Source of the DNA: an uncultured candidatus Brocadiaceae bacterium
Lineage (GTDB): Bacteria; Planctomycetota; UBA11346
Direction of reading: 5' to 3'
NCBI GenBank assembly: GCA_964652775.1
Contig: CAZZAM010000014.1
Coordinates: forward strand, 1,848 to 65,847
Length of the DNA: 64,000 nt
The stretch's first letter is position 1; the number at the start of each line of letters is the position of its first letter. Below the pieces are notes generated by a model. The model was not told the origin of the DNA. It did not search any database and saw only the letters and a program-made list of their open reading frames with translations. A program made the position numbers and the translations under genes. Shown here one piece after another: positions 2,385 through 58,560 of this stretch.

Positions 2385-2574
2385 TTGGTCAACAGCCTAC
2401 AACGGTAGAACGCACCCACACACATGTACCCTAAGCGCCGCAGTTCGCGGTTCGCGGTTCGCGGTTGTCGCACAACGGCTTGAGTCAGATCGGTGCTGTT
2501 TACCCTGCGGGTGAACGTGTGTATATTCTGACTCTGTATGTCCTTGACCAACCGCGAACCGCGAATTGCGGCGC
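2385..2574. repeat. hairpin element A (GTTCGCG-arm family), composite
   Basis: Left arm 2435-2467 is gcgccgcag(ttcgcgg)x3ttg. Right arm 2548-2574 is ccaaccgcgaaccgcgaattgcggcgc. Its reverse complement matches 24 of 25 nt, with one fewer 7-mer unit. Segment 2385-2433 is an inverted, roughly 64%-matching copy of core segment 2503-2551. Both end in ttggtcaa/ttgaccaa. The element ends 6 nt from the GH2 stop. Confidence 0.8.
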
Positions 2575-2580
2575 CTCGGG

Positions 2581-5500
2581 TTAGCTGGCTGTTCGCACGT
2601 CAATACCCGCGAGAGCGACATGGTCTGCTCCCGGGGACAGTTCGGTCGCGGTGAAACGAATAAAACGGGCGGTCATGGTCGTGGGGAGTTCCACGACTTG
2701 CTGGGTGCCATCATCGGCGAAGCGGGCGGTCGCTGCCAAGCGCCAGGTGGCGCCGTCCTGGCTGAGGTGCATGTCGCCAGCCGCGGGCATCGCTGTTGTA
2801 CCAGTTCCCATTTCGGCTTTGAGCGAATAACGCGGTGTCAGGATGCAGGCTGTCACGGAAACCTCGGCGCCCATATCGATGGTGATGTCCTGCGGTGGAG
2901 CAGAGGTTGACTTCAGTTTGTCAAACGTTGTCCAGTAGGTGGTTGGGTCATCGTTGCAGATATTGTGCGGCAGAGCCCGTTCACGGTTATCCCAGAGGTG
3001 TCGGCTCGAGCACGACACGAAGCGCCAGGCGCGTTTGTCGGCACGGAACTCGGCATGGGCGATAGCGGCCGGCACGTCAAGCCCATCTACCGTCGCAGCA
3101 GCTCGCACCAGGCCACCCTGCGGCAATGGGAACGGCGTGACGTAGATGGGTGATGTTGGTCCGGGTTGCTGGCCATCCGTGGTGTAGCGGATGGTGAGAT
3201 TGCGATGAGCTCCGCGGATCCACACCTGACCGTCGGGCTGGCGTCCGATGACCAGTCGGGTGCGTTCGAGTTGTGGTTTCCAACGCGGCTCCATGCAGCG
3301 AAAGAACCTGTCGAGGTCGAAGGCGGCTTGCGGAGCGAAGTCTGGCGAACGGGCATAATCGAGCAGCCGATCCAGCATGGCGTCGGCTTCGGGATAACCC
3401 GATAACAGATTGAGGCCGCAGGCGAGCAGACGGCCGTTTCCGACACGCGCCTGAAAGGCGTGATATTGGAAGTTGAGCGGGTAGCCAACGACTCCAGCTT
3501 TGTATTCGAACTGCTTGCCAGCGCCCACGATCAGAGGTTCCAGACCGAGACAGGGGCTGTCTTGCTCGAGTTGTTCAGCATCGTCGATAAGTCGGAACCA
3601 GCCTTGGTCGAGTCGGCTGTCGAGTGCGAGGCCGGTGAAAGCTGCGTGCGGGACTAGGCGACTGCCAGCCTGGCTACCGACCGCTGAATAGGCCCATTCG
3701 CCGAGGGTTGTGCCAGGCTTGATTGGATCATGTCCAGGCAGCGACAGGCAAAGGACGCGCGCACCACGCTGCAGGGCCTCGGCAACGCCCGGCTCGAGCA
3801 GATTGCGAACGACGAGTAACGCCGCGGGATCGTTGGTTGTGCCATTGAAGACGCCGAGTCGTGGGTGGCGTTTCGCGAGGACAGCGTGAATGGCGGGCGA
3901 GGCGCGCACGTGATCGTCGAGACGTGATGGAACCTGGCGTGGATACAGCCACATTTTCCAGGTATTGAATACCCCGCTGTGCTGGGCGGTCACGCGCAAC
4001 TCGACTTGGCGTGCCTGCGCAACCTCGGGGATGCAGATCGCGCTATGAGCAACCATGGCGACGCTGCCGCGGCTGATGTCGAATGGTGAGGTGGCGCCAG
4101 AGGCCAGGACCGCAGGGCCGTCGCGCAGTTCCCAGCGCAACGCTTCACCGCGCCAGTCCTCGGGCAGGAAATGCGACACAGTCCATGCGACCGACAGCGT
4201 GTCGCCAGAGCGATGGATGACCGATGCCGGATCGCGGCCGAGGACGCCCGCCTGTCCGCCCGCCTGGTAGCGGCCGCAGATCACGGTGGGGCCGTTGAAG
4301 GTGGCGAAAAACTCGGGCGTACTCCATTTGATGTCCCAGAAGTTATCCAAGATGCCGCACTGACCGTTCGGCGAGAGGTCGGTCATCAACCAGAAACTAA
4401 AACCATCAGTCAGCGGATCGAGGCGCACCGCCTCAATGCATATTTTTTGCCAGACGCCCTGGAGGTAGGAACCGGCGTCGAGGCACAGTTCGGCCAAGGT
4501 CCAAGGCAGGCGCAGGGTTCCCTCGACCCGCGCTCGCTGTTCGGCTAGGCGCAGCGTTGGTGCATAACCACTGTGATATTTGCCCTCTTTGCGGGGATCT
4601 TCGTAGATCGTCAGGCTGAAGAACTCATGCCGGATGTGCGGCCATGACTTGCTCGGTAGATCTACTGCATTGGCACCATAGCCATAGGCATGGATGTCGG
4701 ACATTGCCGTCGTGATGTTCCAACCGCCATCGAGACTAATCCAGGGTCGCGACGAATCGAGTTCGTGAGCCAAGTCGCGCATGCGCGTGCCGATTGGCTG
4801 GAGCATGTTGATCTCATTGCCGCCGCTATACACACCGATTGAGACATAGCGGCGGAAATGGGTGACCAACTCATGGAGGTCGGCCTCGGGATTCAGTGGC
4901 GCGCGCGACATGTGGTTCAGTTGGTCGTTGTCAGGCTTGCAGAAGCTGCCCCAGTAGGGCAGTTCGGGTTGGAGCAGGATGCCAACCTCGTCGGCGGCCT
5001 CGAAGTATTCTGGAATCTCACAGTGCGTGTGCATGCGCGCATAGTTGAAGCCGTAGGCCTTCATCGTGCGCAAATTGCGTTTGTGAAAATCACGGTCGGT
5101 GGGCGAGCAGATGGTGTGTGGGTAGGCGTGGTCCTCGCTTCCCGCGCGGACGAAGAAGCGCTGGCCGTTGAGATACAGGTTGGGTCCACGAACCTCAAAC
5201 TTCTTAATGCCAAAGCGCTCGTTCCACGCATCGATGCAGACGCCGTTGCGGAACAGGGCGATCTCAGCCGTGTACAGGTAGGGATGCTCTGGCGACCAGG
5301 GAATGAAACCGGGAATGGGCACCAACTGATTCAGCTTGCCGTCAACGACAGCGAAGTCGGAGGTGGCCACCGTCCTACCGTCGCAGAAGGCACGCACGTT
5401 GACGCGGACCGACAGGCCGGCAGCAGGGCCGCCAAATGTGGCCTGCACGCGCGCAGCCCCAGCATCAAAGTCGCCGTCAACCCAGGCGTAGTCAACCCAT

Positions 5501-6189: not shown

Positions 6190-6290
6190 TTCGAATTCAT
6201 AGGAGACGCAAGACACAGAGGTCAGCTATGTTGAGCAGGAGCGAATCTATTCCCCGCAGGGTGATCTGTCCCTGTCTCCTAACTTCTTGG
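6190..6290. repeat. hairpin element K (GCAGAG-arm family, inverted copy of element C)
   Basis: 6190-6220, ttcgaattcataggagacgcaagacacagag, matches the reverse complement of the right arm of C, ttcgaattcacaggaggcgcagagacacagag, at 27 of 31 nt. Partner arm is 6266-6290, ctgtccctgtctcctaacttcttgg. The loop carries ccccgcaggg (ccctgcgggg on the minus strand). Confidence 0.6.
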
Positions 6291-6435
6291 AACTCCGCAT
6301 CTGCGTTTTCGCTCTGCGAAACGCGGAGCTTCAATGCTGAATGCAGCAGTCCGGACGTCCAGAAGGTTGCATGCAGGCGTTTTGCGCTTTCCCAATAATG
6401 AGGTTGGACACTAGCATGGACAATCTTGCACAAAC

Positions 6436-8517
6436 TCAGGGAGCGAGCGACAGCAAGCAGAAGCCATGGGCTGGTACGCGGCAGGGGAGCGACAGTAGGC
6501 GTGCTTCGCCATCGTTCTGCCAGGTGGGAACGAACGCGACGGTCGCGTCTCCTTCAGGTGGCAGCAGACGAACATGCTTAGCGGCGGCCAGCTCTGGAGA
6601 CAGACGCAGCACAGGGGTCAACGGGTCGAGGCCGCAGTTGAGTACACCGATGGCGGTGCCACCGTCGCGGCGGCGGCGCACCGTTACCTGAACGTTCGCG
6701 GCATCAACGGTGCACGGCAGCGGGGCGCGTCCGACCCAGGCGAGTAGGCGCTGCAATTGATAGCGGCGGGCATGGCTCCAGTGTAGTTGAAACTCACCGA
6801 ATGCAGCTTCGAGATCCCAGCCGAGTACGGCAAAGCGCCGATCTGTGGCGTCCTGCCAGCGGAGCACGGCCGGTCCGCAGGAGTTGTCAGCGGCGTCGTG
6901 GAAATCACTGACGACGATGGCGTCAGGCAGGGGTTGAACACGGTGGTAGACCGCAGGTCGCGATGACCACATCGCCACCGGTCCACCGGCGAAGGGTCCG
7001 TTCAGCGTGTCATGGAGGAAGCGCTCGACATTGGGCGCTGGTGTTAGCGCTGTGGCGGAGATGCCGCAGGCGATACCGCGGCTGCGCAGCACGTCAGCGG
7101 CGACAGCGTCAAGCACGAGCCCGCGCCCAGCCCAGGCCGTCAGTTCGGCATCGTTCGCGAGCGCGGCTTGCCGCCCAGTGAGCAGCACCGGACCCTGGTC
7201 GCAGTCGTAGGCGACCGGGATGCCCAAGCGAGCACAAAGCTGCAGTGGGGGTGGGCAATCGTGTGACGTCAGCGGCCGTTCAGTTCCGGGCGGATTGGTG
7301 AGACGGCGCATGGCGCCGAGTTTGCACGGCGCAGTCACGCCAAGGTCACGGGCGTCTTCGGGTGCGAGTTCGCAGATGGCGGCATAGCGCGTGCGCTGGT
7401 TGATCAGCGCGTCGGTGTAGCCGGTTTCGAAATGCAGCGGTGAGACATAGCTGCACGCATAACTGAGGAATCGACGCGCTCCGGCGGCAAGCAGTGCCTG
7501 ATGCCATGCGTCATAGGTGGTCACTGGGCAGCGCGTGGACAGGTGCGGGAAGGTGTCGCCCTCGCACATGTCCTCGGCGGTGGGCAGCGCGGCTTTCAGC
7601 CAGGCGCGCTGCTGACGTGTTTGCTCAACAATTCCACCGAGGCTGAAGGGGGGCTTGTGCCCACTCGACAGCCAATAGGGCGCGCCATGACCGCGAAAGA
7701 GCGGCCGCAGCGGACCGGCCATAGCTGAGAGCAGGCGCGGTAAATCGAGGTTATCCCAGCAACTATGCGTAGTGCACAAACCGAGACGAACCTGCGGTGC
7801 AACCGCGCGAATCGCCTCACCGAGAGCGCGGCCGAGGTCGATCTGGCCGTCCTCGTGCACGGACCACCACGCCGCACGCTCTGGTCCAGCTTTACCCGAC
7901 AGCGCCAGGCGTAACAGATCGCGTCGAGGTAGATCAGGCATGCCGCGCCGGCGGAACGCGGCGAGGTGCAGTGGACACATGCACCAGTTCGGATTCTGTC
8001 GGAGGAGGCGGAAGTCGTCATCAAGGATAATGAATTCAGGGCGTGCTCTCGCGATGCGCGCAAGCGCTCCGGTCAAATAGTCGCGCAGGCGCGGACACAG
8101 TGGACAGAGGCAGCTGTCGATCTCTTTGCCATCGACATCCATTTCATGTTGGAAGGGCGGTCGAACGCCAGAGGTCGAACCGTTGAATCCACCTGGATGA
8201 CCAAGGGTTTGGCCCATCCAAAAAGCGACCGGGATGCCGACCGCCGCGAATTGCGCCTGCCGCTGCGCGAGCAACTCGGCCCACAGGTCATAAAAAGCTA
8301 GATCGGGGGCGATACCGAGTAGCGCCACGTCTTGATCGGCGGCGGCTCCCAGGCGGGCGCGATAATGGCGGATCGAGTTCGCCGGGTTGGGCAGCATGGC
8401 GCTGTAGAGGATCACCCGCCCGGCACCAAGGCGCTGCATGGCGGCAACAATGTCGGGCCACGCCGCTTCGTCGTCTTGAACTAACGGCAAGGGAATGGAG
8501 AGGACAGGGGTGTTCAT
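6436..8517 (-). CDS. hypothetical protein (693 aa), possibly a TIM-barrel glycosidase-like enzyme
   Basis: Long uninterrupted ORF in the same orientation as the GH2 gene. It contains Cys clusters SCLCPLCP (CxCxxC) and WCMCPLH. I recognise no confident family motif. Its size and the CxCxxC cluster recall the zinc site reported for GH42 beta-galactosidases, but the usual GH42 N-terminal motif is absent. Confidence 0.6.
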   Translation of the reverse strand: MNTPVLSIPLPLVQDDEAAWPDIVAAMQRLGAGRVILYSAMLPNPANSIRHYRARLGAAADQDVALLGIAPDLAFYDLWAELLAQRQAQFAAVGIPVAFWMGQTLGHPGGFNGSTSGVRPPFQHEMDVDGKEIDSCLCPLCPRLRDYLTGALARIARARPEFIILDDDFRLLRQNPNWCMCPLHLAAFRRRGMPDLPRRDLLRLALSGKAGPERAAWWSVHEDGQIDLGRALGEAIRAVAPQVRLGLCTTHSCWDNLDLPRLLSAMAGPLRPLFRGHGAPYWLSSGHKPPFSLGGIVEQTRQQRAWLKAALPTAEDMCEGDTFPHLSTRCPVTTYDAWHQALLAAGARRFLSYACSYVSPLHFETGYTDALINQRTRYAAICELAPEDARDLGVTAPCKLGAMRRLTNPPGTERPLTSHDCPPPLQLCARLGIPVAYDCDQGPVLLTGRQAALANDAELTAWAGRGLVLDAVAADVLRSRGIACGISATALTPAPNVERFLHDTLNGPFAGGPVAMWSSRPAVYHRVQPLPDAIVVSDFHDAADNSCGPAVLRWQDATDRRFAVLGWDLEAAFGEFQLHWSHARRYQLQRLLAWVGRAPLPCTVDAANVQVTVRRRRDGGTAIGVLNCGLDPLTPVLRLSPELAAAKHVRLLPPEGDATVAFVPTWQNDGEARLLSLPCRVPAHGFCLLSLAP

Positions 8518-8599
8518 AGCGTGCTCCGCTGGGCGCGATGTTCGACGGTGCCGACTGCCCAGCTATGGACCGGCCTGTTGTTGTGATGTACGATCTTGC

Positions 8600-9493
8600 A
8601 TGGCCAACCCTGTCCCGCCGGGCTACCATCGTTTCGTCAACGCCCAATTTGAGCCTCCGGTAGAGATTGCCCCGGCCGTTTTGGTGGCGGTGCAACACCA
8701 GCGTGCCGCCAGTGTCCGTCCGCTGTTCCAGCGCCTGCGTGCGTCGAACTGGGTGATCAACTATGCACCCGAGACCGGCCTGCGCGTGCGCCAGGGCGAC
8801 GGGCCATGGTGGATCCGACCAGCACGACAATGTCACTGCTATGCCCCCGGAACGGTGTACTGGGAGGATTGGGAGCCGGTGGCCGGACGGCGTTTCGGCG
8901 GCAGCTATCTGATCGTGCGTGATGTTCCCGGTGGAGCATTAGAGCGACTGCTTGGCAACGCCCCCGCCCGCTTTGTCGATGATCCGCAGGGGCGCATCGA
9001 GGCCGTACTCGCAACCGCCTTCAGCGACGGAGCGCCCACGTTTTGGGAGGCGCAGGCAGCCCTCGCCACGTTGCTCAGCCTCGTCGCCGCAGCACAACCA
9101 CACGCTGATGCCCCGCACCGCCTCGATGATCGCCCGATCAAGCCGTCGCTGACCCAGCGCGTCGACACCTTGCTGCGGCGTAACCTCGCTGCTCGGCACT
9201 CGCTGGCCAGCCTTGCCAACCAACTCGGACTCAGCTCGTCGGCACTGTCTCACCGCTACGTGGCCGAGACCGGCAACACACCGATGACGCGCCTCGCTCG
9301 CCTGCGCGTCGAGTTGGCCCAGGCCCTGCTCCTCACCGGCACCACCATGGCGGACGCAGCACAGGCCGCCGGCTTCTGCGACCAATTTCACTGCTCACGC
9401 GTCTTCCGCCGCATCGTCGGCGTACCGCCGAGCACCTTCCTGAACCACCGCAGGAAGCCACGTCAGCGCAGGGGGCCAGAGTACACGTGGTGA
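8600..9493 (+). CDS. AraC-family transcriptional regulator (paralog 1)
   Basis: C-terminal AraC HTH: LANQLGLSSSALSHRYVAETGNTPMTRLARLRVELAQALL..AAQAAGFCDQFHCSRVFRRIVGVPPSTF. Start moved from 8495, which overlaps the upstream gene, to ATG 8600 (MANPVPPGYHRF). Confidence 0.8.
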   Translation: MANPVPPGYHRFVNAQFEPPVEIAPAVLVAVQHQRAASVRPLFQRLRASNWVINYAPETGLRVRQGDGPWWIRPARQCHCYAPGTVYWEDWEPVAGRRFGGSYLIVRDVPGGALERLLGNAPARFVDDPQGRIEAVLATAFSDGAPTFWEAQAALATLLSLVAAAQPHADAPHRLDDRPIKPSLTQRVDTLLRRNLAARHSLASLANQLGLSSSALSHRYVAETGNTPMTRLARLRVELAQALLLTGTTMADAAQAAGFCDQFHCSRVFRRIVGVPPSTFLNHRRKPRQRRGPEYTW

Positions 9494-10887: not shown

Positions 10888-11622
10888 GTGAACGTCCTCT
10901 TCGTCGGTGCCCATCCAGATGATATTGAACTTTTTGCTGGCGGTACAGCCGCCCTGTACGCCGCGCGTGGTGACAACGTGACCTTCTGTATTGCCACCAA
11001 TGGCAATGTCGGTTCACCAACCTTGTCGCTCGCCGAAACGGCAGCCCTGCGCCACAAGGAGGCCCAGGCGGCGGCAGCCATTATCGGTGCCAAACTCTTG
11101 TGGCTGGGATTCGATGACGAGTTCCTTTTGGACACGCGCGAGACACGCCTCGCCATCATCGAGGCGATCCGTATAGCCAAGCCAGAAGTCATCTTCTGTC
11201 ATTGGCGCCAAGATTATAATCCGGACCATTCAATTTCAGGCATGATCGTTGATGAATGTGTGCACATGGCGGGGGTGCCCAATATCAAGACGGCCTCGCC
11301 CCCGCATCCCCACATTGCCCATATTTATTTTATGGACACTCCAGCCGGAGTTGGCTTCGAGCCTGAGATTTACGTCGATATCACGTCCACCTTCGCAACC
11401 AAGAAGCGCATGGTGGAGCAACACGCCAGTCAGAACGGCTGGACGAAACACCTCTTTGGTTACGAGTTGGAGGAATTCTTGGGCATTCCTGCGCAATTCC
11501 GCGGATTGCAGGCTGGCTGCCGCATGGCCGAAGCGTTTCGTCCTTCGTATCGCTGGGGTCGTACCTTCCGCGAACACTATCTTCCCGGCTGTCTCCCGGC
11601 GCGCGGAAATCCCCGTCCGTGA
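10888..11622 (+). CDS. PIG-L (LmbE-like) family N-acetyl-sugar deacetylase
   Basis: GTG start. NVLFVGAHPDDIELFAGGT (AHPDD motif) and HWRQDYNPDHS (HxxH-type zinc ligands). Confidence 0.8.
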   Translation: MNVLFVGAHPDDIELFAGGTAALYAARGDNVTFCIATNGNVGSPTLSLAETAALRHKEAQAAAAIIGAKLLWLGFDDEFLLDTRETRLAIIEAIRIAKPEVIFCHWRQDYNPDHSISGMIVDECVHMAGVPNIKTASPPHPHIAHIYFMDTPAGVGFEPEIYVDITSTFATKKRMVEQHASQNGWTKHLFGYELEEFLGIPAQFRGLQAGCRMAEAFRPSYRWGRTFREHYLPGCLPARGNPRP

Positions 11623-12464
11623 TGCCAGAACTGCTCGTCGCTGACGCTGGCCTCCTGGCTGAGAATCCGCTGTGGGACGAGGAGAGTAAAACCCTGGCGT
11701 GGACCGACATCGATAATGGACTGCTGTTGGCGTGGTCGGCAGACAGCAACAGCAAGAGCACACGTATCTACCATGGGCCACAAGTCGGTGGATTCACCCG
11801 CCAACGCGACGGCTCACTGCTCCTGTTCCGGGTCGAGGACATCGCCGTCCTCAACGCTGACGGCACGGTGCGTTCAGTTGCGCGCTGTGCTGATCCCGGC
11901 TCAATCCGCTTCAATGACGTGGTTGCCGATCCATTGGGCCGTGTCTTTGCGGGCACGATCGGCCAGACGCCAGACTCCGGTGGTGTATTCCGCATCGACT
12001 ACGACGGCTCCATCCATAAAGTTATCGGCAGCACCGGCATTTCGAATGGCATGGGCTTCTCTCCGGACCGCCGCACCATGTACTGGACATGTAGTACCAC
12101 CGCCCGCATCTGGGCCTACGACTACGATGTGGGAAGCGGCAGACTGGGCGCGCGCCGCTGCATCCAGGAGCCACCTGCCGACGGCGCATTGCCCGATGGA
12201 TTGACGGTGGACGCCGAGGGCTGTTTGTGGTCGGCCCGCTGGGATGGTTCCTGTGTCGTCCGCATGGATCCCACCGGACGGATCATGACCACCATCCCCA
12301 TGCCGACCCGGAACGTGACGTCACTTACCTTCGGTGGTCCAGATCTGCGCGATCTGTTTATCACTAGTGCCGCCGACGCCGCTCATCCGCATGGTGCACT
12401 ACACCGTGTCCGTGCAGCCGGACAAGGCGTGTCTGAGTTCCGTTCGGCGATTGTTACCTCCTGA
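11619..12464 (+). CDS. SMP-30/gluconolactonase/LRE family lactonase (copy 1)
   Basis: LAENPLWDEESKTLAWTDI, ISNGMGFSPDRRTMYW, PDGLTVDAEGCLWSARW, LTFGGPDLRDLFITSA. ATGA 4-bp overlap with the PIG-L gene. Confidence 0.85.
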   Translation: MMPELLVADAGLLAENPLWDEESKTLAWTDIDNGLLLAWSADSNSKSTRIYHGPQVGGFTRQRDGSLLLFRVEDIAVLNADGTVRSVARCADPGSIRFNDVVADPLGRVFAGTIGQTPDSGGVFRIDYDGSIHKVIGSTGISNGMGFSPDRRTMYWTCSTTARIWAYDYDVGSGRLGARRCIQEPPADGALPDGLTVDAEGCLWSARWDGSCVVRMDPTGRIMTTIPMPTRNVTSLTFGGPDLRDLFITSAADAAHPHGALHRVRAAGQGVSEFRSAIVTS

Positions 12465-13401: not shown

Positions 13402-16029
13402 ATGAAAACAACCATATGCATAGAGTGGATGACTGGCAAACCAGCAGGGAGTATTGAGCTAAAAAATGGCGTCGTTAGGGGGGTTAAAATAGTAAAAGGG
13501 CACGGGAAAACCGCAAAAAACAAGTTTGCGTTCACTGGCAAGGCGCCTTTTCGTCTCGCCGTGAGCCTGGACGGTTTTGACTTCACTTTACAAGCGGACA
13601 AACCGCTTGTGAAGGTAAACACGACTGCGGATCCATTCAGTTTCTTCTTAAGAGATGTTAGTAAGGATTTTCCGATCATTATTCTGGATGGCAGGGTTTG
13701 CGTACTTTCAGGAAACGACAAAAGAAGTTATTTGGAAATAGAGGAGTCGATTTCTGGTCTCCACAAGAAAACCTATCTTGAGCGGATCAAAGAAGAGCCA
13801 GAAGAGGATTTTGACAGCGCTGCTACGAAAGTCAGGAAAATGGTTTGTCCTACCTGGCTCGGGACTGGCAGGCACGACATCCGCAATTTCGAGGTCGGTT
13901 TTGTCAATGAGGATTACCACAGTGCGTGGAACTGGATACAGCCTAAGAACCATCACCGGAATGTGATCCCTCCTGATACGGGTGGAAACGCCATCGTTTA
14001 TTGTTTCTCTCTAGGCCGAGGGATAGGCGTGACCCATCATTTAAAAAAGAGACTCGAGGATGGCGTTCTGCCCATAGTTAATGCCGAATATAAGGACGAA
14101 AGCATTGACTACCGAGTCAAAATCTTCGTTTCTGCTGAAAGCGGTAATGTAAACACCCGTAACATAACTGGTACGCATTACTTGGTGGCAGACAAACATA
14201 GCGGCGGCGTTGTAGTAACAGACAAAGAAAAATATGCTTGTGAGGAAATCTTAAGGAATCAACCCCAACCAAACGAGGAAAGCGTTCTGTTCCTGAAAAT
14301 AGAGGCGGTGAATACCGCCGATGTTCCGCGCTATGCTTGGTTCCAGTCGATTATTCCTGAGGCCGTCGGAGTATTTGCGAAAATAAATTGGCAACTGGAA
14401 CGGGAGACTGGTTTCTCTTCCTATTCGGCTGAGAATATTTTCTGTGTATCCTCTCTGAACGGGGAGCCTCTCTGTGAAAGGGAAAACGCTGTTTTGCTCA
14501 AGCCTGGTGAACATGTGGCCTTCGTCGCTAAAGTCCCGCATGTTCCCATATCACGGGCGCGCGCAAGAAAACTAGCGAACGTTGATTTTGAGAAAGCGTT
14601 TCGGAACTGTAATGCTTTCTGGGCTAAAAAAATAAAGCCTTCTGAGAAGATAACGGTCCCGGAAAAGCGCATCAATGAAATGATCAGAGCTGGACTCGCG
14701 CATCTAGACATTGTGACCTACGGGAAGGATCCGGCTGGAGCATTGGCCGCGTGTGTCGGTGTCTATTCTCCCATCGGCACCGAGAGTTCGCAGATCATTC
14801 AATTCTATGATTCATTGGGCTTGCATGACACCGCGGAAAGATGCCTGGAATATTTCCTCGAAAAACAGCATGAGAACGGCGAGATGATGAACTATGATCG
14901 GTACACCATTGAAACTGGTGCGGTGCTCTGGAATATTGGAGTGCATTACGCCTATACACATGACTTGGCATGGGCGAACAAGATAAAGGGGAAGGTGTTA
15001 CTGGCCTGCAAATTCATCAGCGATTGGCGCGCGAGAAATATGAGCAAGGAGTTGTTGGGCAAGGGCTACGGTATGATCGCAGGGAAATGCGCGGATCCCG
15101 AAGATCCATTCCATTCATTTATGCTGAACGGTTACGCCTACCTGGGTTTGAAGCACTCAGGGAAAATGCTGTTAGACATTGATAGAAATGCGGCCAAAAA
15201 AATCCTGAAAGAAGCAGACGAATTAAAGAATTGTATGGTGTCCACGCTGAACGAGGCGGTGGCTAACTCGCCAGTAGTGCCCTTAGGTGACGGTACCTGG
15301 TGTCGAACCTGTCCAACCTGGCCGGAGATGGACGGTCCGTGTGCTCTGTACGTCGATAAAAAGAACGTTTTGTATTCACATGGCGCCTATATTAGGGACA
15401 TCCTTGGGCCGCTCTATGCTGTTTTTTGTGAAGTGCTCGAACCGAAGGGAAAACTGGCGAACGCACTGCTGAATTCTTCCGCGGAATTGCTGTATCAGAA
15501 TAATTCAGCTTTCAGCCAGCCTTATTACAGCCCGCATCCCTGGATACATTTGCAACGCGGAGAAACGAAGGAATACCTCAAGGCCTACTACAATACTCTG
15601 GCGGCTCTGGCTGATCGGGACACCTATTCCTTCTGGGAGCATCTTTTCAGGGTAAGCCCACATAAGACTCACGAAGAGGGCTGGTTCTTGATGTACTGTC
15701 GCTGGATGCTCTATATGGAACATGGTAATGAGCTAAATCTTTTGTACGGAACGCCGGAAAAATGGTTTGCGGATGGGAATGTTATCGAGGTGAAGAAGGT
15801 CAAATGCTACTTTGGAGAACTTGCCTTTCGCGTTGAGTCAAGCCTGAACCAGGGCCACCTACATATGGAGATTCACTGCAATTCACAGAGGAAGCCGAAG
15901 GCCGTTAACGTAAAGATCCCCACCAGCATCAAGATCACTCGTGTTCAAGGAGGGAGGTATGATAAAATCACTGGCATTATTAGGATAGAAAACTTTACCG
16001 GCCAGGCAAAACTTGTGCTTTACCACTAG
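13402..16029 (+). CDS. hypothetical 875-aa protein on a low-GC island, possibly an (alpha/alpha)6 six-hairpin glycosidase-like fold
   Basis: Uninterrupted 2.6-kb ORF. Hand-counted G+C is 42-45% in sampled lines (13441-13500, 14041-14100) against 58% in the adjacent SDR gene (12601-12660). The central region (DSLGLHDTAERCLEYFLEKQHENGEMMNYDRYTIETGAVLWNIGVHYAYTHDLAWANKIKGK) looks like helical-hairpin repeats of six-hairpin glycosidases. This fold call is tentative. Confidence 0.7.
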   Translation: MKTTICIEWMTGKPAGSIELKNGVVRGVKIVKGHGKTAKNKFAFTGKAPFRLAVSLDGFDFTLQADKPLVKVNTTADPFSFFLRDVSKDFPIIILDGRVCVLSGNDKRSYLEIEESISGLHKKTYLERIKEEPEEDFDSAATKVRKMVCPTWLGTGRHDIRNFEVGFVNEDYHSAWNWIQPKNHHRNVIPPDTGGNAIVYCFSLGRGIGVTHHLKKRLEDGVLPIVNAEYKDESIDYRVKIFVSAESGNVNTRNITGTHYLVADKHSGGVVVTDKEKYACEEILRNQPQPNEESVLFLKIEAVNTADVPRYAWFQSIIPEAVGVFAKINWQLERETGFSSYSAENIFCVSSLNGEPLCERENAVLLKPGEHVAFVAKVPHVPISRARARKLANVDFEKAFRNCNAFWAKKIKPSEKITVPEKRINEMIRAGLAHLDIVTYGKDPAGALAACVGVYSPIGTESSQIIQFYDSLGLHDTAERCLEYFLEKQHENGEMMNYDRYTIETGAVLWNIGVHYAYTHDLAWANKIKGKVLLACKFISDWRARNMSKELLGKGYGMIAGKCADPEDPFHSFMLNGYAYLGLKHSGKMLLDIDRNAAKKILKEADELKNCMVSTLNEAVANSPVVPLGDGTWCRTCPTWPEMDGPCALYVDKKNVLYSHGAYIRDILGPLYAVFCEVLEPKGKLANALLNSSAELLYQNNSAFSQPYYSPHPWIHLQRGETKEYLKAYYNTLAALADRDTYSFWEHLFRVSPHKTHEEGWFLMYCRWMLYMEHGNELNLLYGTPEKWFADGNVIEVKKVKCYFGELAFRVESSLNQGHLHMEIHCNSQRKPKAVNVKIPTSIKITRVQGGRYDKITGIIRIENFTGQAKLVLYH

Positions 16030-16160: not shown

Positions 16161-17054
16161 ATGTCCGCAAAGATTTGGAATCGTTTCCAGCACGCCGTCT
16201 TCAAGCCCCCGGCCGCCATGACGCCAGCTGTCCTAGTGGCGGCATCCTACGAACGTACCTGCAGCAACCAGGAAACTGTGAGCCACTGTTGTCATGAAAA
16301 CTGGGTGCTTGACTGTTCGTGGACACCGGGGCTCTATATTCGCATTGGTTCTGCGTCCGAGCCGATGCAGCTGCGTCCGCCTGGTCGGGTTCACTGTTAC
16401 GCCCCTGGCACCAGGTATTGGGAGGACTGCCGCAGCCTGAGTGGCCGACGCATCTCCGGTCAGTATCTGGTTGTCCGCGATCGGGTGGGGGTGTTGAGTC
16501 CCTTAATCACAAAGGGAGCAGCTCTCGTTGATGATGGCGATGGTCGCCTGCGTGCTATCTTGCAGGAAGCGTTCGCGGTATCTGGAGCACCGAGCTTCTG
16601 GCGTTGTCAGGCGCTCTGGTGCACTTTAGTCGAGACACTGTTGATGTCTGTCCCAATATCCGCTGGCCATTGGCATTGCGGGGCCACCGCAGCGGCAGCG
16701 AACTTGGGCGCACAAGTCGAAGAACTGCTGCGCAACGATCTCACGTCCCCCATCTGTTTGGAGGGGCTGGCACGCTCGTTGGGGATCAGTCCCTCGTCAC
16801 TCAGCCACCGTTTCCGGGCCGAAACTGGCGAGTCGGTCATGGGACGGTTGCGCCGACTGCGGGTGGAACGGGCGCTCGCCATGCTGCCCCACGGCCATCG
16901 ACTCGACGATGTTGCCCAGGCCTGCGGTTTCTGTGATCGCTTTCATCTTGCCAAGGCGGTGAGCCGCATCACTGGTCGACCACCGAGTGCATGGAGAACA
17001 GCGCCGACGAGCGGAATGAACGCAGCCACGTCAGTGACCAGGCGTTCGCGTTGA
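16161..17054 (+). CDS. AraC-family transcriptional regulator (paralog 2)
   Basis: HTH LARSLGISPSSLSHRFRAETGESVMGRLRRLRVERALAML..VAQACGFCDRFHLAKAVSRITGRPPSAW. The N-terminal domain is colinear with paralog 1 (VHCYAPGTRYWEDCRSLSGRRISGQYLVVRD versus CHCYAPGTVYWEDWEPVAGRRFGGSYLIVRD). Confidence 0.8.
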   Translation: MSAKIWNRFQHAVFKPPAAMTPAVLVAASYERTCSNQETVSHCCHENWVLDCSWTPGLYIRIGSASEPMQLRPPGRVHCYAPGTRYWEDCRSLSGRRISGQYLVVRDRVGVLSPLITKGAALVDDGDGRLRAILQEAFAVSGAPSFWRCQALWCTLVETLLMSVPISAGHWHCGATAAAANLGAQVEELLRNDLTSPICLEGLARSLGISPSSLSHRFRAETGESVMGRLRRLRVERALAMLPHGHRLDDVAQACGFCDRFHLAKAVSRITGRPPSAWRTAPTSGMNAATSVTRRSR

Positions 17055-22834: not shown

Positions 22835-22908
22835 GCCTAGTCGTCTGTCGAGGATAGACTCTGTTGGCTGGCTTGGTCTCGCTGAGCATTTCCTGTGTTG
22901 TTAACCAA

Positions 22909-23030: not shown

Positions 23031-23033
23031 AGT

Positions 23034-47285: not shown

Positions 47286-47382
47286 GCCGCCCTCTGGCGG
47301 GATGGTGTCGGCCCGGCGACGGGTTCCAAGGGTGGAGTGCAGATCGTGGGTACCGGAAAAGGACTGGGCTGGGCATGGCTAC

Positions 47383-47530
47383 GAAATGCTGGAATGCTGG
47401 AATGTTGGAATGCTGGAATGGAGAGACTAAGGAGGCCTAGACTTGCACGCTGTTGCTGGGACTTGAACGAGTTTGGGATTACTCAAGCGTGGTAACGCTC
47501 AGTTTCCAGCATTCCAGCATTTGGCATTCG
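47383..47530. repeat. hairpin element F (GGAATGCT-arm family)
   Basis: The left arm carries tandem ggaatgct/ggaatgtt units (47383-47421). The right arm is ccagcattccagcatttggcattcg (47506-47530). There is a perfect 15-bp complement between 47386-47400 and 47506-47520. It lies 13 nt after the xer stop. Confidence 0.8.
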
Positions 47531-47543: not shown

Positions 47544-48446
47544 TCACGCCCGCGGATGAAACTTCCGATGAATATCCCGCAGTCGTGACGCATCGACGTG
47601 GGTGTAGCGTTCCGTGGTGGTAAGGCTCGCGTGCCCAAGCAGGGCCTGCACGGTGCGTAAATCCGCTCCGCCTTGCAGCAGGTGGGTCGCGAAGCTATGG
47701 CGCAGTAAATGCGGCCAGACCGGCTTAGTGATCCCAGCGAGCTGTGCCGCATCGTGGACGAGCTTCCACAGGCCTTGGCGATGCCACGGGCGACCACGCG
47801 GAGAGAGCAGCAGTGGCTCGACGCGTCCAGCGGGGTCAAGCGTATGGCGCAGGCCATCGCGATACGCCTTCACGGCGCGTCGGCAGCGCTCGCCAATTGG
47901 AACCAGTCGCTCTTTGCCGCCTTTGCCGCGCAGGAGTGCCAAACGGCCTTTCTCTTTTAGGTCGGTGCAGCCAAGAGTGATGACTTCTGTGGCCCGACCA
48001 CCGAGGGCATAGAGCAGTTCAAGAGCGGCCTTGTCACGTGGACGCATGGGTCCATCAGGTGGGCTGGCAAGCAGACGATCAACTTCATCAGGGCTGAGGA
48101 TGTCCGGAACCGTTTGCCAGATTCTTGGTGCTGGGGTGAGGTGAATGCGATCACGGACGAGTGCGCCCTCTTCGACCAGAAAGCGCGACCACATGCGCCA
48201 TGCAACCAAGCTTTGTGCCAGGGTGGCTGGTCCGAGGTTACGGTGATCACGCAACCAGCCGAGACAGCTGGCGATCTCATCGGGGCCGAGTGCGTCTGGT
48301 GTTGCTAGGCCAAGCGCCTGCATGGCGTCATGCAGATGACGGAGCGCGGTCCGGTAATCACGCACGGTGTTTGCCGACAAGGCGAGTGCGAGACGAACGT
48401 GATCAAGAAAGCGGTCCGCCAATAATGGCAGAGCAGCGTCCTTCAT
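47544..48446 (-). CDS. tyrosine recombinase, XerC/XerD family
   Basis: ORF call 47544..48881 trimmed to ATG 48446 (MKDAALPLLADRFLDHVRLALALSANTVRDYRTAL), giving 300 aa. Catalytic signature: GGRATEV (Arg), HLLRHSFATHLL (HxxR), LLGHASLTTTERYTHV (His..Tyr). Confidence 0.85.
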   Translation of the reverse strand: MKDAALPLLADRFLDHVRLALALSANTVRDYRTALRHLHDAMQALGLATPDALGPDEIASCLGWLRDHRNLGPATLAQSLVAWRMWSRFLVEEGALVRDRIHLTPAPRIWQTVPDILSPDEVDRLLASPPDGPMRPRDKAALELLYALGGRATEVITLGCTDLKEKGRLALLRGKGGKERLVPIGERCRRAVKAYRDGLRHTLDPAGRVEPLLLSPRGRPWHRQGLWKLVHDAAQLAGITKPVWPHLLRHSFATHLLQGGADLRTVQALLGHASLTTTERYTHVDASRLRDIHRKFHPRA

Positions 48447-48489
48447 GCTGAATGCCACAATCCGGAATTCCGGGCAGCACGAGTGAAAT

Positions 48490-51042
48490 TCATGCGCGTT
48501 TAGCAGCGCGAGTGAGGATGCCTGCCAGGTGGCTGGCTCGTGGTGGCGATGGCACCCAGGCATCGAACCCAGGCGGGGCGGCCTGTTCAGCTCCACCGGC
48601 GAGAACGAGTGCAGCAGTTGAGCGGTGACGCCGGAGCTCGGCAGCGATCTTGAGCGCGCCGTGCGGTGGCAGGTCGGCAGCCAGGATGATGGCAGCATAG
48701 GCGACACGTTCTGCTGCAGCGATGCATTCTTCGGAGTCGGCAGCCATATCGACGCGACAGCCAAGGTCAGTGAGCATGGTTGACAGTACCCGAAGATTGC
48801 CCAGTCGGGCGTCAGCGATGAGTACCTGCAATCCATCGAAGCGGCGAGAGAACATGCCGGTACCAGCATGGCGTCGGGCACCGAGGAGCGTTGAACAGAG
48901 ATTGCGGACCTGACGTCGGCGTATCGGTTTGCTGGAGTAGGCGATGCCCAATTGATCAGTCGGATGCAGACGGACGAAGCTGGTCAACAAGAGCAGCGGA
49001 ACTTCGGTGAATGCGGGAATGGCGCGGAAGACACGTGCGATCTCGGTGGGATCATCGTCCACTCCGGCGGCATCAAGAATGGCCAATTCGGGACTGGCCT
49101 CACCAAGGATGGCTTGCGCTTCGTCAAGATCAGGAACGGCGACAACGTCACTTCCGCATTCAGCAAGGATGGAAGCAGTGACTGATCGAGCACTGTCGTG
49201 ATCATCGATGATCAGCACCAGACGTCCGGTCAGCTCAGCCTGGAAGGGCGACGAACTGGTGGCGTCTTCACGCTCCAAGGTTAATTCGGCTGCGAATTCG
49301 CTGCCTTGATCGACCGCGCTGGACACCGAGATGCGTCCTCCCATGGCTTCGATGAGGCGCTTGCTGATCGCGAGGCCGAGTCCCGTGCCGCCAAAGCGAC
49401 GGCTGATCGAATTGTCGGCCTGGGAGAACGGCTTGAACAACGTTTTTAATTGGTCGGGATTAACGCCGATGCCCGTGTCGCGTACGGCAACCCGGACCAG
49501 CGGGCGTTGGGGATGATCGCGAACCAGACGAACGGTGACGAAGATCTCGCCGCGTTCGGTGAACTTCACCGCGTTCGATACGAGGTTCAGCAGCAACTGG
49601 CGCAGTCGCGACGGATCACCACGCAGACGTTCGCCCAGTCGGGGATCGACCTCGCCAACCAATTCGAGATTCTTGGCATGGGCGCGATCGGCGATGACCT
49701 GTAGCACTTCTTCCAGCAAATCGCGGGGATCAAAGGGCAGATTCTCCAAGGCAACCTTGCCGGCTTCGAGCTTCGAGTAGTCGAGGATGTCGTTAATGAT
49801 CTCCAGCAAACCCATGGCGCAGGAGCGTGAGGTTTCGGCGAAGTCGCGCTGTTGAGGATCAAGGTCACTGTCAAGCAGCAGGGTTGTCATACCGATCACA
49901 CCGTTGAGCGGCGTGCGCAGTTCGTGACTCATGACGGCCAGGAATTCATCTTTGGCTGCTGCCGCCTCCTTGGCTTGGGCCAGGGTCCGGCTGAGATCGA
50001 CTTGGGCATTGCGCAGATCAGCGGTCATGCGCTCGGCAAGACGGCGCGCGCGCTGCTGGCGATTCTGAAACTGGTATCGGAGGAGCAGACCCAGGAGACC
50101 AAGTCCAAGCGTACAGCCAGCCAGCAACCAGGGGACGGTTCTCACCCAGCCCGGTGTATTGGACGCGTAGGTCACGCGGAGGGTCCAGGGTCTGCCGCCA
50201 ATGGCGCACGGCACGTCTATTCTGGGTCCAGTAGATTCGAATTTTGTGGCAGTAGATGCAAGTAGAGACTGTGGCGAGGGAGCGCCATCATAGACCTCAA
50301 GACCGCTGATCTCGGTGGTTATCGATACGACGTTGTTGAGTAACCGTGGCACTTCGATCAGCGTGAATACGACGCCGGCCATCGTTCCGAGACGATCATG
50401 CGGATTCCCTGGTTGAATTCCACTTTCGTAAATGGGCATTACGAGAAGCACAGAGCCAGCCCGCGAACCGGTTTGCAGCTGATCCGTGACCGCGTCTTGT
50501 CCGGTGGCCACTGCGGTGGTCAATGTAGTAGTGAAAGAGGGAATTCCGCTCAGGTCGAGGCCAGTAAACACATGTGCGAGATTCGCGGGGTGAGCATATT
50601 GGACGGGATAGGCTATGGGGTCTGTACCTTCACCATGGATGGCGAAATCCTCGCGATTCACTCGTTGTTCCTGAGCAACAAACTCGGAAAGCTTCGGTCG
50701 CGGTACCCTGGGTGCCCAGCCGATTCCGGTCAGAGAATGTACCGGCCAGTCGGACAGTGCAGAGGCGAAGGCGTCCCACGTTGCGGGGCTGATATCCAGG
50801 TGCGCGTTGAAGAGACCGCGTGTGCTGCGCAATAACTGGGTGTAGATTTGAAAGCGGCGCTCGAAGGTGCGACTGACGCGATCGGCGGCCGTATTAAAAC
50901 GATCTTGCTCAATGTTTTCCGCTTGATGGAGCGCGATGAGCAACACCGCGACCGGCAACAGCACAAGCGCCACCAACCAGATCACGACACTGGTCAGCGG
51001 GCGCTTGGCGAGACTAAGCCGAATGACTGAGGTGTCGCCCAT
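48490..51042 (-). CDS. hybrid sensor histidine kinase with periplasmic CHASE domain and two C-terminal receiver-like domains
   Basis: TM helix, then CHASE-like GIGWAPRVPRPKLSEFVAQEQ..YPVQYAHP..GLDL..LVMPIY, then a second TM. HisKA: FLAVMSHELRTPLNGVIG. HATPase: LLLNLVSNAVKFT, VRDTGIG, GGTGLGLAISKRL. Then LVLIIDDHDSARSV.. and LQVLIADARLGNLRVL.. REC-like segments. Confidence 0.85.
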   Translation of the reverse strand: MGDTSVIRLSLAKRPLTSVVIWLVALVLLPVAVLLIALHQAENIEQDRFNTAADRVSRTFERRFQIYTQLLRSTRGLFNAHLDISPATWDAFASALSDWPVHSLTGIGWAPRVPRPKLSEFVAQEQRVNREDFAIHGEGTDPIAYPVQYAHPANLAHVFTGLDLSGIPSFTTTLTTAVATGQDAVTDQLQTGSRAGSVLLVMPIYESGIQPGNPHDRLGTMAGVVFTLIEVPRLLNNVVSITTEISGLEVYDGAPSPQSLLASTATKFESTGPRIDVPCAIGGRPWTLRVTYASNTPGWVRTVPWLLAGCTLGLGLLGLLLRYQFQNRQQRARRLAERMTADLRNAQVDLSRTLAQAKEAAAAKDEFLAVMSHELRTPLNGVIGMTTLLLDSDLDPQQRDFAETSRSCAMGLLEIINDILDYSKLEAGKVALENLPFDPRDLLEEVLQVIADRAHAKNLELVGEVDPRLGERLRGDPSRLRQLLLNLVSNAVKFTERGEIFVTVRLVRDHPQRPLVRVAVRDTGIGVNPDQLKTLFKPFSQADNSISRRFGGTGLGLAISKRLIEAMGGRISVSSAVDQGSEFAAELTLEREDATSSSPFQAELTGRLVLIIDDHDSARSVTASILAECGSDVVAVPDLDEAQAILGEASPELAILDAAGVDDDPTEIARVFRAIPAFTEVPLLLLTSFVRLHPTDQLGIAYSSKPIRRRQVRNLCSTLLGARRHAGTGMFSRRFDGLQVLIADARLGNLRVLSTMLTDLGCRVDMAADSEECIAAAERVAYAAIILAADLPPHGALKIAAELRRHRSTAALVLAGGAEQAAPPGFDAWVPSPPRASHLAGILTRAAKRA

Positions 51043-51548: not shown

Positions 51549-51606
51549 GGTCAATCTCCGGGCGCGGGTGTATGGCGCAGGGTGGGTGGGCGCAATGGGG
51601 AGGAGG

Positions 51607-51767
51607 GGAATGCTGGAATGCTGGAATGCTGGAATGCTCGAATGTTCGAACGATGTGATCAGGCGCATTGGTCGAGATCTCGTCTTAAGTTCCGCAACCC
51701 GGGTCTGGATCGTTGTCCTCTCTCCATTCTAGCATTCCAGCATTCCAGCATTCCAGCATTTGGCATT
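51607..51767. repeat. hairpin element G (GGAATGCT-arm family)
   Basis: (ggaatgct)x4 at 51607-51638 is perfectly complementary over 30 nt (51609-51638) to (agcattcc)x3agcatt at 51731-51760. The right end, agcatttggcatt, is shared with element F. It lies 11 nt after the methyltransferase-like gene stop. Confidence 0.9.
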
Positions 51768-54164: not shown

Positions 54165-54180
54165 GCTAGAAAGCTCTCTT

Positions 54181-54333
54181 CAAGGCAACCGCAGAGGCGC
54201 AGAGGCCGCAGAGGTCGCGGAGGTAGAGGTTTGTTGCGAGATTCCAACTGACTGAATGTTTTCTGTTAGATGACTGCCAAATGAAGGCCTCCTCTGCGAT
54301 CTCCGCGGCCTCTGCGCCTCTGAGGTTGCCTTG
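54181..54333. repeat. hairpin element E (GCAGAGGC-arm family)
   Basis: Arms are 54181-54229 and 54288-54333, with about 41 of 46 positions complementary by hand. The first 29 nt of the left arm (caaggcaaccgcagaggcgcagaggccgc) are identical to element D, 28 kb away. The loop is 58 nt. It lies 26 nt after the gltX stop. Confidence 0.85.
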
Positions 54334-54359
54334 GATGTATTCAACAGAAACGGTTATGT

Positions 54360-55895: not shown

Positions 55896-55983
55896 GGAGA
55901 AAAGGAAGAAGGAGGAAGGATGAATGATGAAAACCGAATGCGTTTTCTCATAATTCTGCCTTCTTCCTTCTTCCTTTTTCCCC
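55896..55983. repeat. hairpin element I (polypurine/polypyrimidine arms)
   Basis: The left arm ggagaaaaggaagaaggaggaaggatgaatgatgaaaac pairs with gttttctcataattctgccttcttccttcttcctttttcccc around a 7-nt loop, cgaatgc. Perfect runs of 10 bp and 6 bp exist, and roughly three quarters of positions pair by hand. It lies between the divergent gltX and metG starts and ends 15 nt before the metG ATG. Confidence 0.8.
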
Positions 55984-55998
55984 TATAAGCCCTTCCCC

Positions 55999-57933: not shown

Positions 57934-57942
57934 TATTCAGTC

Positions 57943-58257
57943 ATGAAACGCTGGTGGATTCTTGTCATGGTTGGTTTGATTGTCTATCTTGTGGCCTATG
58001 CCCTACTGAGAGTGAATGGAAACATCATCATCTACACGCGGCTGGACACGTTTATGCGTGATGGCGTTGGGAATTCATTAGAGGGGAACCCTGACGAATC
58101 CAGGCCACATGGTTTTGTGGCCCTTTCAGAGTTTCGATGCTGTGTGATTTATTTCGACTCAGGTGCGCTGGAAGTGGTCGCCAAGATAGTATTCTGGCCG
58201 ACCATAAAGATGGAATCCATATGCCTCAGTGCGCATGGATTTGTTCGGTCATTTTAA
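57943..58257 (+). CDS. small hypothetical membrane protein (104 aa), low GC
   Basis: Starts 10 nt after the metG stop. N-terminal TM helix WWILVMVGLIVYLVAYALL. The first 60 nt hand-count to 45% G+C. No family recognised. Confidence 0.4.
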   Translation: MKRWWILVMVGLIVYLVAYALLRVNGNIIIYTRLDTFMRDGVGNSLEGNPDESRPHGFVALSEFRCCVIYFDSGALEVVAKIVFWPTIKMESICLSAHGFVRSF

Positions 58258-58374
58258 GATTTCGGCAATCTGTCGGTTTATCACGAGGTCGTTGATCTGC
58301 AGAACGTGCAATTACCGGACTGGCGTCTGGTATTGGGACAAATGAATCAGCCATATTGTACATGGGTCAACCAG

Positions 58375-58560
58375 CCCCAACGGGGCGGCGCTATCCCAGC
58401 CCAGGGCAACGCCCTGGGAACGTGGCGTTCTCTGCACCTGAGCCCTGTAGGGGCGACCCACACGATGTCCGACGCGATGGATCGCCCCTTCAGGGCTCGA
58501 ACGAGGGGATGCCTAAACCCAGGGCGTTGCCCTGGGCTGGGATCAGTCGCCCCGTTGGGG
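58375..58560. repeat. nested hairpin element J (CCCAGGGC-arm family)
   Basis: The outer arms 58375-58418 and 58518-58560 have 13 bp plus 26 bp of perfect complement around a 4-5 nt mismatch. Each arm contains its own 8-bp palindrome, cccagggc..gccctggg. The 99-nt loop holds an inner hairpin, 58440-58456 with 58482-58498, pairing 16 of 17 positions. It lies between convergent stops, 27 nt from the 58588 stop. Confidence 0.85.

Follow-up and report, generated by a model that had tools for sequence, protein, structure and literature searches.

Hairpins with tandem-oligomer arms between the genes of a candidatus Brocadiaceae contig: candidate ORF-less members of a class of foldback cassettes

The 64-kb stretch of DNA analysed here (64,000 nucleotides of contig CAZZAM010000014.1, from an uncultured candidatus Brocadiaceae bacterium; hereafter the window) carries, in the spacers between its protein-coding genes, a series of long hairpins whose arms are mostly tandem arrays of a short unit, and which are named here elements A to K. 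The window has a G+C content of ~60% and no rRNA gene; homologues of its gltX are annotated as Planctomycetota, and a 17.5-kb stretch of a Hainich groundwater metagenome (ENA ERZ1292639) is identical to window DNA. A contig of the same region from the source sample (L123) shows 7 single-nucleotide polymorphisms over 15 kb, none of them in hairpins.

Hairpin elements in the spacers of the window

An earlier note on this DNA had listed eleven long hairpins with tandem-unit arms, usually starting just after stop codons. Inverted repeats and Tandem Repeats Finder arrays were called independently of it, and folding was scored as z against 100 dinucleotide shuffles. These tools recovered the inverted repeats and the tandem-unit arms at the places that the note had named, and nine of the eleven elements (A, C, D, E, F, G, H, I and J) proved to be strong hairpins (z -4.5 to -16.3), whereas B forms no hairpin and K is only a 12-bp remnant; three gaps that had been called empty gave z close to 0. 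All inverted repeats with at least 85% complementarity found in the window search are intergenic. The hairpin elements measure 75-190 nt, with stems of 19-45 bp in A and C to J, and their arms are mostly tandem units with a period of 7-9 nt, the unit types in the window being GTTCGCG, GCAGAGGC, GGAATGCT and GGAAGAAGG. The loops (11-106 nt) hold no open reading frame (ORF), and the small ORFs beside the elements have no Pfam match.

On a gene map made with Pfam and NCBIfam, A, C, D, E, F, G and K have co-directional minus-strand genes on both sides, B and J are at convergent gene ends, and H and I between divergent starts, as had been described. The edge of A, B, D, E, F, G and J stands 0-24 nt past the stop codon of the upstream gene, and C, by its extended stem, reaches the stop too; the placement of eight elements just beyond minus-strand stop codons is thus confirmed. 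Several elements have the next start codon only 14-50 nt further on. Copies, counted for each element family within the 64 kb of the window, are dispersed: A with B, D with E, and F with G.

Element D (26360-26513; -109.7 kcal, z -11.9) lies between the stop of an SDR gene (26536) and the start of a lactonase gene (26334). Its arms read CAAGGCAACC(GCAGAGGC)n, and the outer 24 bp are perfectly paired, with further pairing inward. Element E (54179-54335; -102.9 kcal, z -10.9), which is 24 nt past the gltX stop and 14 nt ahead of the next start, has the same arms (43 nt) around a loop unrelated to the D loop; the non-repetitive outer arm CAAGGCAACC is identical in both, and mirrored CGCAGAGG arrays occupy 26369-26402 and 54190-54224. 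Element C (25310-25445; z -4.5 and -5.5 in two runs) reads TTCACAGGAGGCGCAGAGACACAGAGG ... CTCTGCGCCTCTGCGTCTCCTG on the minus strand and has arms of the canonical type described below. In the K gap (6217-6435; whole gap z -1.0) the remnant at 6288-6331 (z -3.35) is a 12-bp hairpin of decayed GCAGAG, GCAGAT and GCGGAG units, outside which the gap has no significant structure.

Elements F (47380-47526; z -5.4) and G (51605-51762; z -8.5) share a second unit: the F arms are (GGAATGCT)n and the G arms (GGAATGCT)x4.5, the latter 36 nt long and 97% complementary, with mirrored AATGCTGG arrays at 47385-47420 and 51607-51644. F stands 17 nt past the stop codon of a XerD/C-like recombinase gene. Two other sequencing runs gave contigs of this organism that terminate inside the GGAATGCT arm of G, which is accordingly read as multi-copy. 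A further contig, L247, carries the ortholog of a 280-aa window gene but is uninformative, as it ends 13 nt past the stop codon. Such hairpins break short-read environmental assemblies, as at the G arm, and they also corrupt gene calling through false N-terminal extensions; an independent gene call for the lactonase begins at MIAPFM, which confirms the false extension that had been suspected there.

Element A (2428-2581; -90.8 kcal, z -8.7) has arms at 2428-2467 and 2549-2581 with (GTTCGCG)x4, seen by the repeat finder as a CGCGGTT array at 2439-2466 with its mirror at 2550-2565, and its outermost pair abuts the stop codon of the GH2 gene (2581-2583). Its 80-nt core folds as an inner hairpin bearing TTTACCCTGCGGGTGAA. 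B (22895-23033; z +0.9 and +0.18) is a shortened copy of the A type, with the left arm and the conserved core present and the right arm missing; it aligns to A up to ~23030 and diverges at the stop codon of the gene at 23034-24062. The two share ~130 nt of non-repetitive core at ~85-90% identity, so that the suggestion that copies keep their arms while their loops diverge describes D versus E and F versus G, but not A versus B.

The two elements between divergent genes are H (38152-38225; z -7.0 and -7.9 in two runs), a perfect 19-bp hairpin (ATGTAGAATGCTCGAATGG), and I (55896-55982; z -7.4 and -7.1 in two runs), a purine-rich hairpin (GGAAGAAGGAGGAAGG...) that fills the gltX/metG spacer and contains a purine-rich 7-mer array at 55902-55931 with its mirror at 55954-55981.

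Element J (58373-58563; -159.3 kcal, z -16.3) is a composite 190-nt palindrome, in which an inner hairpin (58440-58498), containing GTAG, is flanked by two inverted modules that read CCCAGGGC-GTT-GCCCTGGG ... GCCCCGTTGGGGC. These modules are like Acido-Lenti-1, a candidate RNA of no known function described in Acidobacteria and Lentisphaerae (PMC2864571): over all 46 positions of the Rfam RF01687 model, both hairpins included, the right half of J scores 34.6 bits (E 4e-4 for the whole window), a near miss of the gathering threshold of 37. J differs from Acido-Lenti-1 in being an inverted pair of modules around a third hairpin, and elements of the same build, with two inverted modules around an inner GCCCTG-N-AGGGC hairpin, occur in IMG/VR contigs, as do half elements. 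At gathering thresholds the Rfam scan of the window gave no match. Permissive Rfam matches of I, H and J to miRNA precursors were rejected, as they reflect hairpin shape alone, which leaves that of J to Acido-Lenti-1 as the sole meaningful one. Together with an architecture like that of the 23S rRNA intervening sequence (IVS; PMC4990558), this match makes the view that the elements have no known relative too strong.

Arms of the same kind around cargo genes in other genomes

A 15-mer from the D/E arms, GCAGAGGCGCAGAGG, searched with one genome per species, was present at 120 or more loci in many phyla, where ~1000 chance matches are expected for a collection of this size. The loci come from Planctomycetota, Verrucomicrobiota, Acidobacteriota, Burkholderiales, Rhodocyclales, Bacteroidota, Chloroflexota and others. 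Of the 120 loci listed, 59 have forward and reverse units no more than 350 nt apart, giving hairpins such as ...ACCGCAGAGGCGCAGAGG...CCTCTGCGCCTCTGCGGT..., and the typical hairpin of the listed loci runs T(T/C/A)ACC-GCAGAGGCGCAGAGG, a loop of 9-250 nt, and CCTCTGCGCCTCTGC-GGT(G/T)AA. A gene of ~120 codons is enclosed by, or adjoins, the arms in four of the listed loci, and the two intact products scored belong to TIGR04256, the PD-(D/E)XK-like GxxExxY family (E 1e-40 to 1e-43), which has been listed as PDDEXK_3, with function unknown and multiple transfers (PMC3424549). A sequence search of the PDB with GxxExxY found no related solved structure.

As an independent test, GxxExxY genes were fetched from metagenomes by protein similarity alone and the 200 nt on each side were compared, which gave 72 usable loci. 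Their flanks have a median inverted-repeat score of 41, against 17.5 in the direct and 19 in the reversed control, and scores of at least 40 occur in 38 of the 72 loci and in one of 72 in the reversed control. The arms of these cassettes are tandem 7-9-mers with the core GCAGAG most commonly, and also ACAGAG, GCGGAG, GCCGAG, ACGGAG, ACGAAG or CATGAAG, and in 54 of 62 cassette arms the array of units is introduced by ACC. The D and E arms, CAACC-GCAGAGGC-GCAGAGGCC-GCAGAGG, are of the commonest cassette-arm type. When arms were scored for ACC and at least three mirrored RCNGAGR units at 7-10-nt spacing, D and E had them and C had a variant, while A, F, G, H, I and J did not.

The GxxExxY cassettes are co-oriented with the upstream gene in 42 cases versus 8 and with the downstream gene in 36 versus 12, and the left arm begins a median of ~6 nt past the upstream stop codon. 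A start close behind a stop codon thus characterises the class at large and not this window alone. ORF-less hairpins in other genomes lie between co-directional genes in 18 cases, at convergent ends in 8 and between divergent starts in 2.

Beyond GxxExxY genes, the same kind of bracket surrounds genes for the IVS protein, a four-helix bundle. The probe for this protein was a consensus sequence, and its matches were confirmed by Pfam PF05635 (E 1e-33 to 1e-40); inverted tandem-oligomer arms bracket all eight of the PF05635 genes examined in IMG/VR contigs. Their units vary (GGCAGGA, GGCAGAA, TTCGGCR, GCTGTTG, AGGGTATAGGAAAC, CCCGATCGTTCC), and one, GGAAGAAGGAAGGAGG / GGAAGAAGGAAGGAGGAAGAAGGATGA, resembles the arm of element I. 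Neither regular expressions nor tblastn turned up an IVS-protein gene among the loci fetched earlier. At L088:1185-1931 a MazE-type antitoxin and a PIN-domain toxin are enclosed by inverted arms of CCCATCG units, which suggests that toxin-antitoxin modules too travel in such brackets. Bystander ORF-less hairpins in the fetched loci have the heptamers GTCCCGG, GCGTGGG, TTAGTAG and GCTGGTT, and on the contig of the nearest lactonase relative a GTCCGAC-unit hairpin directly follows a stop codon. The variety of units in the window thus mirrors a variety that is class-wide. Scans of viral contigs for GGAATGCT and GTTCGCG arrays returned mostly one-sided or coding arrays and one short hairpin (L208), with no cargo-bearing cassette among them.

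Several smaller observations on these loci are recorded here. At L109:1094-1175, immediately past a GxxExxY gene, an array of the right-arm kind passes into one of the left-arm kind (…CTCTGCGGTAAATCTCACCGCAGAG…), as if two cassettes abutted end to end, and nested or multiple arms are seen in L018 and L050. In the spacer after the sulfatase gene of a relative (L253:9137-9352) there are five direct copies of GGCACTATCAGC, the spacer starting with CCTCCGCGCCTCAGCG, like a lone canonical right arm. A ~570-nt intergenic spacer of an IMG/VR contig (L206:3760-4310) is filled by successive one-directional arrays of (AACCGCG)x6, (AACCAAG)x4 and CTCTGYG, which end in a long array reading through as a repetitive ORF, with no inverted partner nearby. 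Extended -10-like motifs (TGATATAAT, ATGATATAGT and TGGTATACT) stand between the left arm and the IVS-protein start at L238:560-700, L239:600-700 and L243:620-700, and some cargo genes may accordingly bring their own promoter. The purine-rich arm is rich in Shine-Dalgarno-like GGAG and GAGG, and its partner arm is anti-Shine-Dalgarno-like; such motifs could couple translation of a cargo gene to that of the host gene.

The centre of the A core (2495-2515) reads TTTACC-CTGC-GGGTGAA, a mini-palindrome with a similar CCTGCGGAT in B and C. Its resemblance to two canonical arm termini (TTCACC ... GGTGAA) placed end to end is suggestive only. The YTGCGG hexamer to which the earlier note had pointed in the loops is enriched there, with 6 occurrences in 891 nt of loops versus 1.5 expected (P ~0.004), a figure to be read with the motif having been chosen post hoc and with A and B being homologous copies, so that the counts are not independent. 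The canonical right arm, too, ends in CTGCGG (...CTCTGCGGTGAA).

The proposed foldback cassettes and the competing explanations

Junctions in relatives speak to how the elements arrived, although the relatives that supply the junctions orthologous to those of C and E are distant (52-84% amino-acid identity). In two of them, L246 (lactonase 70%, MR_MLE 84% identical) and a JGI contig (lactonase 64% identical), the lactonase stop overlaps the MR_MLE start with no spacer at all, where the window junction is 206 nt long and holds C; the C-terminus of the window lactonase is altered. Judged from these junctions, C is an insertion. Likewise, the gltX-sulfatase spacer of L253 (gltX 72%, sulfatase 52% identical) is 61 nt without a long hairpin, versus 195 nt with E in the window. 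The closest lactonase homologues, P0004 and P0005, were unusable as empty sites, being not syntenic.

On balance we favour the view that the hairpins of the window are ORF-less members of a widespread IVS-like class of palindromic foldback insertion elements, the arms of which are tandem arrays of a 7-9-nt unit and which elsewhere, with the same architecture, bracket GxxExxY, IVS-protein or toxin-antitoxin cargo. Of the roles that the earlier note had offered, the MITE-like one (after miniature inverted-repeat transposable elements) has the best fit: the junctions of relatives lack C and E, copies are dispersed, the arms occur in many phyla, and assemblies break in G. From their position after stop codons, and from published work on IVSs, the elements would be co-transcribed with the upstream gene. 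The RNA stem (19-45 bp) would then probably be cut by RNase III, by analogy with those IVSs, and the insert looped out or excised. The geometry of the stem would bring the upstream stop and the downstream start together, making the insertion nearly harmless even in tightly coupled junctions, and the base of the stem would be opened by ribosomes that terminate a few bases ahead of it; this apposition of the flanks would explain why insertions are tolerated where genes once overlapped. Being built of tandem units, the arms would readily undergo slippage and arm-to-arm correction. Spread could occur through recombination between arms or through a cargo-encoded nuclease, and H and I, between divergent genes, may have gained a host role.

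A number of our results weigh against this proposal. The arm sequence itself ties only C, D, E and K to the cargo cassettes, while A/B and F/G/H are linked to them by architecture alone. A GxxExxY profile run against six-frame translations of 61 ORF-less loops found nothing at E<=10, so that the ORF-less elements are not recognisable deletion derivatives of GxxExxY cassettes. Among the window ORFs scanned there is no known transposase, and flank matches of 3 bp or more, as expected of target-site duplications, did not exceed chance at the elements; 2-bp flank matches number 14 versus 5.9 expected, with element boundaries uncertain. Arm mismatches in 58 cassettes (70 sense-strand G.U, 92 antisense-strand G.U and 188 transversions) have no G.U bias toward the sense strand, and in the window it is the plus strand that folds better, by 5-11 kcal, than the transcribed minus strand. 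Neither the mismatch pattern nor the folding advantage of the plus strand indicates that pairing is kept up in the RNA; it is the arm sequence that is conserved. The proposal that selection acts on structure and not on sequence is not supported for the main family, in which ACC and GCAGAG-type arms are conserved across phyla.

Only for element I has structure been kept while sequence changed. A tandem-unit hairpin (106 nt, -71 kcal; 124 nt, -66 kcal) likewise occupies the metG/gltX spacer of L250, L251 and L252, with the unit GGCGGAA in place of the GGAAGAAGG of the window, at a gltX identity of 80%; gltX and metG are each preceded by the same CU-rich strand. Conserved position and structure with turned-over sequence suggests a host role at this one site, which counts against the favoured view.

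Element I speaks for the first of the competing explanations, in which the host has selected the hairpins as RNA structures at the 3' ends of genes (terminators without a U-tract, barriers to 3' exonucleases or processing sites that tune mRNA within operons), the families having arisen by duplication or convergence. The position of eight elements 0-24 nt past stop codons is as this explanation would have it, and so is the scarcity of divergent sites (2, beside 18 co-directional and 8 convergent) among the ORF-less hairpins elsewhere. We nevertheless regard it as unlikely. Most elements stand within runs of co-directional genes, where the next start is 14-50 nt off; the host manages without C and E, relatives having the genes overlapping or 61 nt apart; the transcribed strand has no G.U or compensatory signal; and identical arms bracket selfish-type cargo in distant phyla. 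Nor were U-tracts or terminator-like sites found: F, G, E, I and J have no following T-run and none was flagged by a terminator scan, so that the reading of the elements as intrinsic terminators, which the earlier note had already set aside, is rejected.

Improbable, in our judgement, is a second explanation, in which the hairpins are by-products at the DNA level that grow in place with neither transposition nor an RNA role and might extrude as cruciforms, replication slippage expanding a unit and intrastrand template switching (quasipalindrome correction) copying it to the other arm. The great diversity of unit sequences within and across genomes, the one-sided tandem arrays of the same units, the failure to find target-site duplications and the variation in heptamer number among Coxiella strains (PMC4990558) would all follow from it. 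What it does not account for is the outer, non-repetitive CAAGGCAACC that is identical in D and E, the ~130 nt of non-repetitive core shared by A and B, and the recurrence of ACC + GCAGAG arms across phyla, which together argue for the copying of whole units between loci.

We think it very unlikely that the elements, or at least J, are repetitive extragenic palindromes (REPs) or REP doublets (REPINs), mobilised by a RAYT or TIRYT (IS200-like Y1) transposase. J is indeed a composite of short GC-rich palindromes with GTAG in its inner hairpin, and REP and terminal-inverted-repeat families are tied to tyrosine transposases in Planctomycetes and Acidobacteria (PMC3733652). REPs and REPINs are also abundant extragenic palindromes, often downstream of genes, with inverted doublets forming long hairpins. 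Yet the window elements are 75-190 nt long, and the arms of A to I, besides being far longer than REPs, have no GTAG/CGTC tag and are not themselves palindromic; no Y1 transposase is present among the window ORFs scanned, a RAYT beside the J-type copies not having been searched for. The statement that the elements are not REP-sized holds, as does the statement that they are not CRISPR.

Integron attC sites closing gene cassettes, which the imperfect 75-190-nt palindromes just past stops and the tyrosine recombinase gene beside F might bring to mind, are effectively refuted, because that recombinase is XerD/C-like (262 bits), its IntI score of 116 bits lying below the cutoff of 265, the flanking genes are large or housekeeping ones (GH2, gltX, metG), and the arm ends have no RYYYAAC/GTTRRRY core sites and no R''/L''/L'/R' boxes.

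Returning to the IVS-like class, a parallel in arm design is offered by the eukaryotic Foldback (FB) transposons, which have long inverted arms of short tandem subrepeats, an arm length that varies and a centre that is variable or absent and occasionally holds genes. They differ from the window elements in being eukaryotic and of kilobase scale, and no sequence relationship between the two is known. ORF-less rRNA IVSs exist, so that a cargo ORF is not strictly required of an IVS-type cassette.

The 23S rRNA IVSs of Salmonella, Leptospira and Coxiella resemble the window elements in their long terminal inverted repeats paired as a stem, with tandem heptamers in the arm in Coxiella, in a loop that is empty or holds a PF05635 ORF, and in a sporadic, apparently horizontal distribution (PMC4990558; 10.1101/2024.02.27.582315); PF05635 genes outside rRNA have similar bracketing arms. 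In Coxiella the terminal inverted repeats pair into a stem of 28 bp with three or four tandem GACAGAT heptamers, in a number that varies with the strain, the loop contains the IVS-protein ORF, and RNase III excises the insert in vitro, with ends mapped by rapid amplification of cDNA ends (PMC4990558). As of a 2024 preprint, the IVS protein is functionally uncharacterized and IVSs are thought to be horizontally transferred (10.1101/2024.02.27.582315). The window elements differ in being ORF-less and in lying in mRNA spacers, not in rRNA helix 25 or 45.

With MITEs and with the Correia, ERIC and Nezha elements they share a non-coding sequence, terminal inverted repeats, dispersed copies and, for C and E, presence or absence at orthologous sites, whereas no convincing target-site duplication was found in the window elements, their arms are tandem oligomers, their loops are unrelated within a family, and the genes inside their partners with such arms are those for GxxExxY, PF05635 or toxin-antitoxin proteins, none being a known transposase. 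The one-sided arrays of window units in IMG/VR contigs are like the cyanobacterial STRR and the Beggiatoaceae TAACTGA arrays, which are intergenic tandem 7-mers sporadic across phyla (PMC4679880), though these are direct, without an inverted partner, and mostly upstream of start codons. We found no description in the literature of tandem-oligomer arms around GxxExxY genes, or around PF05635 genes outside rRNA, a search whose coverage was incomplete and which is no proof of novelty.

More tentatively, there could be a single superfamily of bacterial foldback cassettes, inserted after stop codons in the direction of transcription and carrying GxxExxY nucleases, IVS proteins, toxin-antitoxin pairs or nothing, of which the rRNA IVSs would be those whose landing site was rRNA. 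Mobilisation would then have a new mechanism, in the form of the small GxxExxY protein or of host recombination at the arms, and RNase III cleavage would be what makes the insertions harmless. Were this so, the origin and spread of IVSs and the role of the IVS protein, open since ~1990, would become testable in ordinary operons, and the large, patchy families of GxxExxY and IVS-protein paralogues scattered inside unrelated operons would be explained.

Other features of the window

The recombinase ORF beside F (47544-48881) has 445 codons, with homology beginning only at residue 155; it either has an unusual N-terminal extension or a miscalled start, and it overlaps the end of an 850-codon ORF (48490-51042). 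A further ORF of 875 codons without a Pfam match (13402-16029) lies in the lone markedly low-G+C stretch of the window (0.48 vs ~0.60) and may be foreign. Two SMP-30/gluconolactonase paralogues (11619-12464 and 25471-26334) lie within 14 kb of each other, and three AraC-family regulators (8495-9493, 16161-17054 and 17120-18016) are found within 10 kb.

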